DNA from: Stylophora pistillata
Lineage: Eukaryota
Assembly: GCF_002571385.2 (NCBI RefSeq)
Contig: NW_019217789.1
Coordinates: forward strand, 1,403,876-1,467,875
Length of the DNA stretch: 64,000 nucleotides
Direction: 5' to 3'
Shown here: in pieces, positions 6,701 through 59,700 of the stretch
Layout of the letters: every line of letters starts with the position of its first letter
Numbering within the stretch: the first letter of the stretch is position 1
Position numbers and translations under genes: made by a program
The notes under the pieces: generated by a model
Told to the model about the DNA's origin: nothing
Database searches by the model: none
The model's input: the letters and a program-made list of their open reading frames with translations, nothing else

Positions 6701-9700
6701 ACTACAGATGAGGGAAAGGGTTTATCTTGGAAATGGTTCAACCAGACATGTGAGACTAACAGGGGCCATTTGTTTTTGTTGTTGTTTATTTTAATTAAAC
6801 AGAGTTCCCCTGAAACCAGAACAGGCCTGTGCTGCAAGAGATGCTTTGGCAAAAGCTCTCTACACCAAACTGTTTGATCACATTGTTGGCCAGGTCAATC
6901 AGTGCTTCCCTTTTAAGAATTCTTTTACTTACATTGGTGTGTTGGACATCGCTGGCTTTGGTGAGCTTAACAGACCACATCTTTCTTACTTTTGTTACGT
7001 GATAGTCTATGATACCCAAGGTGTCTGGTTTAAGATAAATAGGGAATAATACACGGGCAAGCGTAGGTGTAGACTTTCTCTTGGGGAGTTCAACTCGATA
7101 TCTCCTGACTGGTGAACGCTTTACCATTCATTCATCAACCTGACAGAGTGGTGCAAAAGGCGAGCGACGTGTTAGCAGTTGATTGGAGATATCAAACACA
7201 TGTGACTAATTTATCGTAATTTTTCACGTGTGCAGTTACGGCTTTTCTCAGGGCTGGAAATCCTTATAAGACACCAGTTTATATTACATTTAATATTCAA
7301 ACATACTGTGTTCTTAAGAGTGCAAAAAGAGAAAAAAAAAAAAGTGCTCAGTAGCAAAACTGGCGAAGTGTTACAAATAATTATTCATTTGAATATTAGC
7401 AAACATGTGCCAAATATGAATGTAAATTGGACAATGAGAAAGTATCACTTGGTATGGAAAGGGTTTGTGCTCTGTAATTGTTGCTCAAAGATTTTTTACA
7501 TTTTATTTTCTACCTCATACAAAAACATAACATTGAGAATTGATATACTTTTTATCAAATATTTTCTTATCTTCAGAATACTACGAATTCAACAGCTTTG
7601 AACAGTTTTGCATCAACTATTGCAATGAAAAGCTACAACAACTCTTTAATGATAGGATACTGAAACAAGTAAGTAGAGATGACTAGATGTAAATTAGTTT
7701 TTTCTGTAAAGGTTTACTCTAACGTAAAATGAATTCTGATTTGCTTTCACTGCTTCAAATCACAGGAGCAAGAGTTGTACGATAAAGAAGGTCTTGGGGT
7801 AAAATCTGTGACGTTTGTGGACAATCAAGATTGCATTGGTGAGTTGCTAGAATAATTTTTATTTAAGTGTCAAAAGTAAATACGGCATTGTCGGGGTTTT
7901 GCTTTATTTCGTTATATGATTGGTAGAGAACTTGCACCATTTTCATCACTAATCAGAATCAAACTAAAACCAATCGCGACGTGGTCACTCGCGTGTTTCC
8001 GCTCTTCAGGCAGTTCGTTTGTTTCTACTACGAGGTCTCGCTGGCTCCTGGTAATACTTTCCTTGGTACGATTGGCTGTTAAGACAGACGGACAGACAAA
8101 CGGGCTCATGGACACACCCAGCAGACAAGCGTGAAAAAAATTCAAACGAAACTTGGATACAACTGAAGCTGATTACGTTTTATGGTGCAATAAAGAAATT
8201 TGCAATTCTGTTCCAAAGTCCATTGCTGGCATATGACGTAGAAACGTGAGTAAATATTGTAAGTTTTAAACACATGACTTGGTGGTTTCTTCAAATTGCA
8301 GCGCTCATTGAAGCAAAAAAGACGGGAATTATTGACATTTTGGACGAGGAGAGCAAGCTGCCTAAACCCACTGCAGAACACTTCACACGAGAACTTCACC
8401 AAAAACACAAGAACCACTTTAGGCTGGCGGTGGGTATCTGATCAAATTATCCATTCTCTCAACTGATTTCCTTAGCTTTCATTTATCTTTGTAGATAGAT
8501 CAGTTGGCTATTTGGAAAGCGCAGCTAAGGAGGTGAACTCCAGGGAACCAAGAACAAGTTCAGGTTGGGCAGAGGACTCGAACCCAGGTCCAACAGCAGA
8601 AGACAACTCGCCAATCACCCAGCCATACTGCCTCTGTTGATCTTGATAGTCTAGAAAGCTGTATGATTTGAATAAATCAGGGGGAATAGGTGGTAGGGTG
8701 TTCCAGGGGGGTGGGTGAGCGGTTCTCTCGTTATCGTCCCGATGGTGTTCAAAGGCATGTCAGGTTGTTTTAAAGTCCATATGTCCACTTTTTCTTCACG
8801 AAGAAGGGGTTAAATGCAGCGTAGAAATCTCTCTTAGATACAGCACATCCTTGTAAAATTAATGTTCTGTGTTCATGAGGGTTTGTTGCATTAAAAGGAA
8901 ACTAAAACACACTAATAATATACTATATGAAACTATAATATACTAATGAGCGTTCATACCTTTTCCTTGTGTAGCTCCCCAGAAAATCTCATCTGATTTA
9001 CCACAAGAAAATGCGAGACGATGAAGGCTTCCTTATTAGACATTTTGCCGGTGCTGTCTGTTACCAAACAGTAAGTTTTTATAAAGGCTGATAGTTTCAA
9101 AAGAAACTGTTTGGGGCTGCGTCGATGGGGGTAACGAAATAATTTGGATATATCAACAAAGTCGAAATGGTAAATTGGCCACCGTAACGATTACAAAAGC
9201 TGACGTTTCGAGCGTTAGCCCTTCGTCGGAGCGAAGGGCTAGCGCTCGAAACGTCAGCTTTTGTAATCGTTACGGTGGCCAATTTACCATTTCAACTTTG
9301 TTGATATATCCAAATTAGTAAGTTTTTACAGTTACCTACCATTGGCAGCTACAGAGTGATTCTTTTGTCAGTGAATGGTAACACAAAGCGTTAAGACCTG
9401 CGTTGCAAGTGCTGAAAATTCTATCATTGATGATTTTCAGTTAATTTTTATCTTGCCTTACATATCAGGTTGGTTAAAATATGTGCCAGCTTCTACATGA
9501 ATTAAGCGTTGTTTGTAAACTGCGAATAAAACAAAAACGTTCAGTTTACCTTTATTTACAAACTTTCTGGCCGGATATTTCTTGTGTCGTTGCACAAGAA
9601 CGACCTTTTTTTTATTTAGTGAAATCCTTGCTCTGTGATTTCATTTCAGTCGGATTTTATAGAGAAGGATAACGACGCTCTTCACAGCGATCTGGAAGAA

Positions 9701-56700: not shown

Positions 56701-59700
56701 ATCCCTGAGCAACCTTTGCAAAGACTGCATTCCTTAATTCATTAAAAAGAGATGCACTTGTACGGGCTGCTCCATCTGAACATTAAGGAGATAACAAGAA
56801 AGTTGACAGCTAGGTCAATCAAATGAACAGACGATTTTATCAACTTCATCAACTAAAGGGTGTTATCTTGATAAAAAACAATTTCTACTTTCTGTTTTTA
56901 TTGTTGGGAGGTCGAATAACAAAATTAATGATCATGCTTTGGAAATCAATGTGATTGAGGTGAGTAGTCAGTTGTGTGGAGATTCTTTGCATGTTTGATA
57001 GTCAGTTTTTCTCGTTGCCATGTTCCCACCAATAACGTAGCTCCATTCTCTGCCCTTAAAAGCACACACAACCCACAATTCCTCTATTCGCTCTGACGAA
57101 GGGCTAACGCTCGAAACGTTAGCTTCTGTAATCGTTACGGTGGCCAATTTACCATTTCAACTTTGTTGATATATCCAAGTTATTTCGTTACTCCCAACGA
57201 CGCTGCCCCAAACAGTTTCTTTCAAAACTATCAGCCTTTATTCATTGATAGTCAGACCACTGCCTTAATGATCAAAATGTTAAAACTTGAAGATGATTCC
57301 TGAATGCTAGTTTCTATAATTGTTTAACCAAAGGAGCACTACTCACATCCCAACAGCAGTGCTGTCAGCGCTGTAAAGACAGTTCCACCTGCCGTTTGAA
57401 CCAAGGCAGCTGAGTCCATGTTGTTTAGGTAATCAACAGCATACTTAAACAAGAATGGTACTTGTACATTCATCAGCTGAAGGACACAAAGTTTGGTGGT
57501 AAATCTCATGTGTCCAAACAGTAACATTTGATAAGTTACAATGATGTTAATCTGATGGTCACCACACATGACAGTAGTCATCTGGCAAGCAACATTGGTA
57601 TTTAATACTAACCGCCTTACATGTTATCTGACTGTGTACAAACAAACAAATAGATTCCATGCTGCTGTGCATCTGTTCAGCAATAGATTGCAGATAACAT
57701 TAGAATATGGCAAGAACTAAAATATGACAACTGAGTTACAGCTGAGAGATGTTCTTACCACATCTTGACTCTTCAGGCTGTGATTTTTTACATACAAACC
57801 CATGGCAACATGGAATCTATTTGTTTTATTTGATAAAAAGCATGATCAGTTCCTTTACACTTGTGACCCTAATGTTTGAGAAATCAAATGTTAGTAATCT
57901 TAGCAGTCAAATGGTTAAGGTTTGTGTATAAGATTGCCCTTGTACCTAAGCCTTGAAGTATACTATTAATAAAATCTTATGGTAAGAACTCACTGGTGCG
58001 TGTAACTTTACGTACCTTGGCTCCAATAAGCAGAACTACTGCAGCAACTACTCTTCTCTTCAAATCAGGCCTGTCTTTGGGCCAAACATGTTTTAACATT
58101 CTTTTAATTATTGACAAGCTATCTGTGGATGATACATTTTTCAGGCTTTTTGATGTGATATTGGTACCTCCATGCTGTTGTCGCTTACTCACAAAGAGGA
58201 GTCCTGGCTGTTGAAGATGTGACATAGAAATCTTCATGAGAACATATCCAATTTGAATGTTGTTTGTAAAATGAAATCAGTTAAATGAGCTAATCAAGTG
58301 ATACCCAGTATATCAACAGATCACAGAACACATTTTTTTTGTAATTTTTCTTTTTTTTTTAAATATACTCTAGTGAGCAGCACACAGCAACAGATCTTGT
58401 CAACTTCTTTATTTTCTCCAACCAGTTTCATCCAATAACACAGACTTTGTCAGGGAGTATGAACAAGATAGTGAAGGAACTTATTTTATACCTAATCATT
58501 GTGGTACAAATCACGTTCCAACAAGGGTGTGAACAGCAAAAAAACACTCTAAAAATATTAGGTGCAGGATATGACTAAAATCCTGCGTGACGCTAAAAAT
58601 GTGCAATGTTTAATTTTAGAATGAGAATGCTTAATTTTGGGGCTCATGGATTTGATGTTAAATCTGTGAGCCCCAAAATTAAACATTCTCATTAAAAAAA
58701 AAAAAATTTTTAAAAATTTAAAAAAAATTAAAAAACCATCTTTATTTACCCTTTCACTCCCAAGATCTCATTAGTAAATCTCCTTACTGTCTGTGATACA
58801 ATTCTTATGATATTCCTTTAGAGAACTTGGTATCTGATCAACCAATAATCCACTGGTTGATATTTTTCTTCATTCTCATCACTTGTATTCTTGATATTGT
58901 ATTCATTTTGTGAGGAGAAATTCTGTCTTGGTCACTCACAGGAGTGAGAGGGTTTTAAAGTGCCTTAGCAGCTCTGGGAATATTGTTCTCACCTTACTTT
59001 GCCCTCTGATGGGAAAGTGGCCCTATGGTTATCATACTAGCACCTACTTCAAAGGGCAAATATTGCTATCTAAAGGTCAATTTCCTATCCAGTGGATAGG
59101 TATCGACAAAATCTAATGTGCTATCCACTGGATAGAGATGTAACCAGCAGATTGCATTATCCAACTTTCAAAAAACCAGGACCTCCACTTAAACACATTT
59201 TATGAAGAAGGGTACAAAAGAAACCAATGTGTTTTTTTGGGCAAAAACCTCAATTTTCAAAGTGCCTCTAACCACCCAGGAGCAAAAATGGATATGAGCA
59301 AACTGTGAAAGAAACAAGATAAAAATTATGCTAGGGGTAACTTGCAATGGACTAAAATCCCATCTATGGGAAGAAGCAACACTCAAACATACTTTAAGCT
59401 ACATTTGAAACCTTAACATTCCTACAGCTCTTACCGTACGGGAATGCCAACCTCTCAAAAGAAGGTTAGGCACACAGGGCTACAATTAAAACTACTTTGC
59501 AAATAAAAAAATTTGATTAAAATAATGACTTTACCTCACAAGAAGCAAATTTACTGCTCAGAGAAGGTATTATCTTTGTTGCAGCTGGCTTGGGTCTTAT
59601 ATGGTGTCCACGAGAGCCCTTAAATCAAAATTCCAATCATTAGTTTATTAATTTTGTTCCTGAAACATTCAAATTCATGGCACTCTATTACATGTGAGCT

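Follow-up and report, generated by a model that had tools for sequence, protein, structure and literature searches.

Mirror-image inserts at the locus

The window analysed here is a 64,000-nucleotide (nt) stretch of the coral Stylophora pistillata (contig NW_019217789.1, positions 1,403,876 to 1,467,875), and it holds five young inserts of one Penelope-like element (PLE) family, three of them built from two inverted copies, or arms, of the element's pseudo-long terminal repeat (pseudo-LTR). Each insert is bounded by its own exact target site duplication (TSD), of 12, 11, 13, 12 and 11 bp for copies 1 to 5, whereas mismatched flank pairs, used as a control, yielded a duplication of comparable score in 3 of 400 cases. 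Element positions are numbered from +1, the A of ATTCGCT (window 32684 or 57086). Two TTATT motifs serve as landmarks: an internal one at +95-99 (site 2) and one at the tail end, at +153-157 (site 1). The five copies are composed as follows.

9070-9081 / 9317-9328: copy 1, TSD, 12 bp
9082..9235, minus strand: copy 1, tailed arm, element +2..+156, hammerhead core with U4C
9232..9316, plus strand: copy 1, tail-less arm, +12..+97, 4-nt microhomology at the joint
20800-20810 / 20907-20917: copy 2, TSD, 11 bp
20811..20906, plus strand: copy 2, single arm ending at site 2 and starting at +1 with one extra G; canonical-core minimal hammerhead at 20812-20849
27342-27354 / 27549-27561: copy 3, TSD, 13 bp
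27355..27483, minus strand: copy 3, tailed arm, +28..+157
27485..27548, plus strand: copy 3, tail-less arm, +34..+97
31996-32007 / 32834-32845: copy 4, TSD, 12 bp
32008..32199, minus strand: copy 4, tail-less arm, -95..+97
32200..32833, plus strand: copy 4, tailed arm with 3' end of the open reading frame (ORF), 3' untranslated region, TATA-like motif, +1, hammerhead and tail
32198-32593, plus strand: copy 4, ORF 3' end with CX4CX2C linker and GIY-YIG
32653-32658, plus strand: copy 4, TATA-like TTTAAA; +1 at 32684; minimal hammerhead (U4C) at 32684-32721
56995-57005 / 57245-57255: copy 5, TSD, 11 bp
57006..57244, plus strand: copy 5, single tailed arm, -81..+159, with +1 at 57086
57180-57184 and 57238-57242, plus strand: copy 5, site 2 TTATT and site 1 TTATT

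The arms pair over an 86-bp core with a 6-nt loop in copy 1 and over 64 bp with a 7-nt loop in copy 3, and in copy 4 arms of ~192 bp flank a GIY-YIG fragment. All tail-less ends stop at CCAAATT(A), 58 nt before the tail end, in agreement with the TTATT motifs starting at +95 and +153. A preliminary description of this DNA had listed the five copies with TSDs of 11-13 bp and these arm and loop lengths, a common arm boundary about 55-60 nt before the tail end, and about 11 traces of the family in 64 kb; every one of these points was recovered, with eleven traces counted. Its label of copy 2 as a hammerhead-only insert had to be abandoned, as the 96 nt consist of 38 nt of hammerhead and 58 nt of pseudo-LTR.

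Family identity and abundance

Longer copies run into an ORF encoding a reverse transcriptase (RT) together with a GIY-YIG endonuclease (EN) at its C-terminal end. One such locus (L286) holds a 594-amino-acid open frame with matches to RVT_1 (E=2e-7) and GIY-YIG (E=5e-4, under the cut-off), and the window copies match the 3' end of its family at 92-96%; the GIY-YIG of copy 4 itself scores slightly under the curated Pfam cut-off (E=3e-4). The frames carry a CCHH zinc motif (CITCTYC between the GIY and YIG equivalents, with H residues downstream), the DKG motif (as ADKGG in L296) and the CX2-5CxxC motif of the RT-EN linker (as CARARCKTC, that is, CX4CX2C), and the pseudo-LTRs occur inverted and with an optional tail, PLEs being marked by pseudo-LTRs in either direct or inverted order. 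The five inserts are the 5'-truncated ends of an RT- and GIY-YIG-encoding Penelope-like retrotransposon and belong to a single PLE family, as first proposed; judged by its predicted motifs, this family is of the Neptune/Nematis type under the definitions in the accessible part of PMC8557442.

A 29-base marker of the family has 5,325 + 609 exact matches in the 398-Mb genome (at least 5,934), and a marker of an older subfamily has 580. Six exact matches lie in the window against ~1 expected per 64 kb, so the local density is above the genome average. Four loci (L281-L284) have 45-190 bp after the tail in common, with no long ORF in the assembled part, and this sequence is probably flank rather than the start of an ORF. 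Two of them (L282 and L284) have the same head-to-head junction, differing in the presence of a left-arm tail. The pattern possibly reflects re-mobilisation with 3' flank.

Two fixed 3' ends, paired one of each

The genome-wide sample comprised the first 100 listed places of one marker search, most of the first 90 listed by the other, and the window, which gave 156 marker-anchored inserts; 30 were dropped for N, leaving 126 for analysis, and all further sets were selected by pattern. Sixty inserts had a single arm and 66 had two, invariably head to head. Single-arm inserts ended at site 1 in 27 cases, at site 2 in 32 and elsewhere in one. With both kinds of end common in these inserts (32 vs 27), the internal boundary at site 2 acts like a place where RT begins, and appears to be a priming site and not a stop. 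Among two-arm inserts, 52 combined a site 2 end with a site 1 end, three had two tails, none had two site 2 ends, and 11 had a shortened, unclassifiable end. One-each pairing therefore holds in 52 of the 55 classifiable inserts (P=5e-13 against independent site choice). The fixed internal boundary and the variable junctions of the preliminary description are both upheld. The older subfamily behaved likewise, with one-each pairing in 13/13 two-arm inserts (24 rows), four of them with 13-15-bp TSDs.

TSDs bounded 46 of the 52 mixed two-arm inserts, 36 of them being 12-14 bp long with a mode of 13, and none of the three two-tailed inserts; a TSD was found in 23/59 single-arm inserts, significantly fewer than in the mixed class (p=6e-8). 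We examined target sequence in 79 two-arm inserts with 12-14-bp TSDs, pooled from all sets. G occupied the first position beyond the TSD in 45/79 inserts at one edge and 46/79 at the other (15 expected), and the full GTY triplet was present in 26/79 and 25/79 (2.3 expected), a symmetry already visible at n=51. These flanks indicate that the empty site is a loose dyad, RAC-N13-GTY. The primers end mostly in A and both start sites contain TTATT; base-pairing between such primer ends and the U-rich start sites would be possible.

Alleles, lengths and junctions of the arms

The two arms of an insert share alleles. At four non-CpG subfamily sites in 101 arm pairs, the minor allele was found in both arms 42 times and in one arm eight times, against ~9 and ~73 predicted by independence. 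Arm length class was similarly concordant, with both arms short in 39 inserts, both long in seven, and only 4/50 discordant (p=9e-6). Of 50 junctions 44 were distinct, none occurring more than three times, and 44/101 had an overlap of 1-11 nt.

A targeted search recovered 37 inserts with a very short tailed arm, of which 28 were analysed, 26 of them with TSDs. Twelve of the 28 join directly, the tailed arm starting at or past ~+99, and therefore have almost no inverted repeat; TSDs bound 10 of these 12. In eight of the 28 (L305-L334) part of +1..+26 is retained in the tailed arm, after which the sequence skips to +84..+112, which could be read as an RT jump over the second cDNA or as a later deletion. 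Three of the eight jumps span a CCGACG repeat at +8 and +112.

5' ends and the hammerhead

Over half of the arms (102/186) have their 5' ends at +1..+15, five at -3..-1, and only seven in -50..-4. Three older copies have TATAAA at -31, where the young reference has TTTAAA. From these ends and motifs we infer an RNA start at -1/+1. RNA reads of run X24 over the stretch examined for empty alleles were dominated by other copies and located no start. The extra G of copy 2 had suggested a cap-derived base at +1, a candidate rejected on 33 G-preceded versus 569 A/C-preceded matches, C being a subfamily base.

The putative hammerhead occupies +1..+38, with the predicted cut between +35 and +36, and was read by eye against the minimal descriptor as given in the available text of PMC4209133. 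The CUGANGA and GAAA boxes, stems I and II and a palindromic minimal stem III were all recognized in copies 2 and 5, and 24 of 26 scored older-subfamily cores conformed and kept U4. U4C was found in copies 1 and 4 and, with an otherwise intact core, in 82/142 young arms, only 3/142 being fully canonical; copy 3 is devoid of the 5' half of the core, CUGANGA being absent from both its arms. An Rfam scan of the window at E<=1 matched no hammerhead family; it gave 10 weak hairpin-type matches, each of them below the gathering score. The minimum free energy fold of the monomer was another structure than the hammerhead (z=-1.14).

Young-family 5' ends fell at +36 in ~11/100 listed rows by eye, compared with 9 at +34 and 10 at +43, and AGC microhomology explains six of those ~11. 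Hammerhead cutting was accordingly rejected as the source of these ends, with no clear +36 peak (1/30 computed; ~5 of ~85 scorable rows by eye). A weak hint at +36 was seen by eye in the older canonical-core subfamily (~5-7 of ~48 ends). U4C lowers hammerhead activity in vitro (PMC3088659, accessible part), and its sweep through the most recently active subfamily suggests that cleavage is dispensable for spread. The hammerhead looks incidental and would be carried along because it is located at +1..+38.

Proposed twin priming and its alternatives

We propose that the mirror-image inserts probably arise by twin priming, in which two nicks both use one pseudo-LTR RNA as template. In twin priming of L1, the second target strand primes on the RNA as well, leaving an inverted segment, a TSD and a microhomology junction; there the position of the second site varies and the segments are not known to overlap, whereas the coral family has a fixed second site and arms that usually overlap, which gives hairpins. 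The coral endonuclease would likely nick both strands ~13 nt apart in the symmetric target, one nick likely priming RT at site 1 and its partner at site 2, which lies 58 nt upstream on that RNA. Each cDNA would extend in the direction of the RNA's 5' end or truncate, and the two would likely be joined head to head by microhomology. Single-arm inserts would result where only one nick primed, the far end being closed by repair, often with TSD loss. One RNA may serve both arms by strand displacement, a protein dimer may set the spacing, and most cDNAs would run off at +1, the putative start of the RNA. Such a scheme would explain the presence of a tail at one end only, the fixed boundary and the lack of nesting between arms, together with the TSD mode, the dyad and the alleles that arms have in common. 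It also replaces the graded series of the preliminary description, as the various forms can be read as outcomes of two start sites plus variable 5' truncation, with no evidence of stage-to-stage succession. That the fixed ends are priming sites is suggested by analogy with an anole PLE, PAc (Poseidon of Anolis carolinensis), whose protein nicks and extends both strands in vitro. In the available text of that study, two internal RT start sites bound the PAc tail, the hammerhead is unnecessary for insertion and a dimer is predicted (PMC11167929).

The published proposal is self-priming on an antisense template (PMC3846280, accessible part). In such a fold-back, a cDNA begun at the tail end, or an antisense template, copies itself to site 2, and later deletions of the hairpin centre give the non-nested forms. 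Alleles and length class common to both arms, microhomology at 44/101 junctions (1-11 nt) and the internal tailed-arm deletions in 8/28 selected junctions would all follow. However, folding back leaves unexplained the 32/60 single-arm, sense-orientation ends at site 2, the identical GTY motif at both TSD edges, the ten TSD-bounded inserts with essentially no inverted repeat, and a tail-less arm that is longer at least as often as the tailed one (5' reach greater in 25/50 versus 14/50), and we consider it unlikely. The term fold-back, used in the preliminary description, is not borne out by these arm lengths and single-arm ends. Twin priming could alternatively draw on two separate RNAs, one per protomer, which would make strand displacement unnecessary where overlapping arms are the rule; two RNAs from a single highly expressed source locus would also have shared alleles. 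Yet the arms are concordant (42 vs 8) despite several coexisting subfamilies, and short or long class agrees in 46/50. Two free RNAs, moreover, give no reason for one-each site use (52 vs 3), and this variant is accordingly improbable.

Spread of the short hairpins as units, either as miniature inverted-repeat transposable elements (MITEs) of DNA type or as a retrozyme-like hammerhead retroposon with self-cleaved ends, strikes us as very improbable. Retrozymes do derive from PLE pseudo-LTRs (accessible part of bioRxiv 10.64898/2026.07.22.740005), L282 and L284 have identical junction and downstream sequence, and the +36 ends of the older subfamily would fit self-cleavage. But junctions are distinct in 44/50, ends are asymmetric and copies are not tandem; the 102/186 arms reaching +1..+15 extend beyond the cut site, young cores are U4C in 82/142 and canonical in 3/142, and +36 is not clearly above its neighbours in the young family. 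Where a MITE would have inverted repeats at both ends, 52/55 inserts have the 58-nt tail at one end, and in place of uniform length and a fixed short TSD we found those distinct junctions and TSDs of 10-18 bp. The MITE reading is thus largely refuted, and the earlier view that the inserts spread by retrotransposition stands. Tandem units each with a complete hammerhead, as expected of retrozymes, were absent among the 126 inserts.

Several observations weigh against twin priming from one RNA. The common alleles and length classes are just as compatible with fold-back, and gene conversion between arms could contribute to them. The 25 versus 14 asymmetry in arm reach is not significant (p=0.11), and the non-nesting could partly be later hairpin deletion because one-sided loss occurs in 8/28. 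Tailed-arm 5' ends show no sharp pile-up at site 2, the 37 matches spreading by eye over ~+75 to +120; a collision of two RTs at site 2 was rejected for want of such a peak. The maximal-TSD convention depletes T and somewhat inflates G at the first outer base, to which the 45/79 and 46/79 refer, and does not affect the next two. Single-arm inserts show a weak second-nick motif beside them (uncorrected p=0.002 and 0.03, with raw GTY counts of 8 vs 5 and 8 vs 7). In vitro, PAc showed no start-site difference between strands, whereas the two ends of one coral insert use different sites (PMC11167929, available text). No complete tandem master with a 5' pseudo-LTR and ORF start, such as the autonomous RT-EN copy that was to be sought, was recovered among the loci examined, because the long young copies run into N runs of the assembly; nor was the N-terminal portion on which the published dimer model draws recovered intact. 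Finally, copies 1-3 are entered by contigs from runs X1, X2 and X6 or contain the starts of such contigs, and the predicted empty alleles did not appear among 15 listed joints (417 others) for these copies; the assembly itself may have been built from X2 or X1.

Other traces, host genes and neighbouring repeats

The six traces beyond the young five are mostly older or more diverged (~70-90% identity):

10837..10904, minus strand: old pseudo-LTR trace
11127..11239, minus strand: trace with a tandemly amplified hammerhead stem II 11-mer
21809..21871, minus strand: old pseudo-LTR trace
35894..36139, tail-less arm minus, tailed arm plus: older two-arm copy, 70-76% identity, no TSD found
37794..38363, plus strand: copy of an older subfamily that ends at site 2, with canonical TATAAA and the decayed remains of GIY-YIG
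46905..47011, plus strand: related copy, 88%, ending at site 2 and bearing a short inverted segment at the 5' end

The stem II 11-mer of the pseudo-LTR hammerhead is repeated ~9 times in tandem at 11127-11239. Relative to L096, the same 21 bp of the GIY-YIG frame are missing in young copy 4 (32400-32420) and in the older copy 5.6 kb away (37975-37995), for which recurrent microhomology deletion and local conversion are candidate readings.

Copy 1 lies in an intron of a myosin VI gene on the plus strand, and copies 2 and 5 lie in introns of tetraspanin and ABCB7-like genes, antisense to each. Copy 3 lies downstream of a frame that codes for ankyrin, and copy 4 sits just upstream of one with a tyrosinase domain. 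With respect to the host sense strands, the hammerhead motif is antisense (copies 2 and 5), incomplete (1 and 3) or U4C within a long hairpin (4). No window copy places a canonical ribozyme on a host sense strand, which speaks against the suggested seeding of ribozymes into introns; there is no support for a function of the ribozyme in the host.

Elsewhere in the window, a very abundant repeat lies at 26761-27040, inverted at 59886-60001, with a summed contig depth above 1e6 in X1 and X6. A second dispersed repeat of ~175 bp (families D11, D14, D17-D20) occurs in both orientations at 4369-4543, 13558-13745, 26698-26753, 33247-33316, 43439-43789, 46250-46745, 55119-55192, 58746-58953 and 63925-63998. 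Other hairpins lie at 24934-25453, 46843-46896, 58614-58697 and 17838-18000, some with weak microRNA-family matches far below gathering score, and 42675-50000 holds a tandem pair of paralogous 7-TM receptor genes (7tm_2; the first of them with Dicty_CAR as well).

Relation to known elements and significance

As elements, the coral inserts are ordinary, and their layout is already known: the accessible parts of the literature describe head-to-head pseudo-LTRs with a one-sided tail (PMC8557442, PMC3846280, PMC2377424) and minimal hammerheads (PMC4209133) in PLEs. The boundary and tail singled out in the preliminary description are therefore real and not new: they correspond to the pair of RT start sites in PMC11167929 and to the tail described in PMC8557442 and PMC3846280. 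Overall, that earlier interpretation is partly supported.

D. virilis Penelope and Adineta Pen2/Pen2a share with the coral family 5' truncation, an adjacent inverted truncated copy, a tail at one end, a TSD, TATA/Inr-like pseudo-LTR motifs and head-to-head junctions (PMC8557442, PMC3846280). They differ in tail length (30-40 nt, against 58 in the coral) and TSD length (8-10 bp, against a mode of 13); the coral family, unlike them, offers hundreds of scorable short copies, and its symmetric GTY flanks find no mention for these elements in the available portions of the same two sources. With PAc the family shares two start sites bounding the tail, whereas PAc prefers ATT and the coral family GTY 3' of the nick (PMC11167929). 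The C-terminal GIY-YIG with CCHH, the CX2-5CxxC linker motif and DKG are as in Neptune/Nematis clade PLEs (PMC8557442). CUGANGA, GAAA, an extra base before stem II, a palindromic minimal helix III and a short helix I are as in metazoan PLE minimal hammerheads, from which the coral family departs by U4C in the young subfamily and a helix II of 4 bp (PMC4209133). Like non-LTR retrozymes, the inserts are non-coding, hammerhead-bearing and pseudo-LTR-derived, but retrozymes form tandem arrays and the coral inserts are dispersed one- or two-arm stubs (bioRxiv 10.64898/2026.07.22.740005).

The origin of the inverted repeats and one-sided tail of PLEs is called undefined in PMC8557442, the accessible text of PMC11167929 gives no model for inverted arms, and very short 5'-truncated PLE insertions have been reported in an alga without an inversion model in the available portion (PMC9977147). 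We found no application of twin priming or of a symmetric target to PLEs in the literature covered, subscription papers and supplements lying outside that scope. The coral counts favour twin priming and make the PLE inversion question testable, and they provide a concrete substrate for the existing in vitro system, namely RAC-N13-GTY with start sites +95-99 and +153-157. In practice, hairpins of this kind will be annotated wrongly in their thousands, as MITEs or as microRNA precursors. We lean, by a narrow balance, toward the more general view that PLE integration is an obligate double-nick twin priming, in which a dimer would cut RAC-N13-GTY symmetrically with its RT sites on the two TTATT starts of one RNA. 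If true, one geometry would explain head-to-head pseudo-LTRs, the one-sided tail and TSD length across PLEs.

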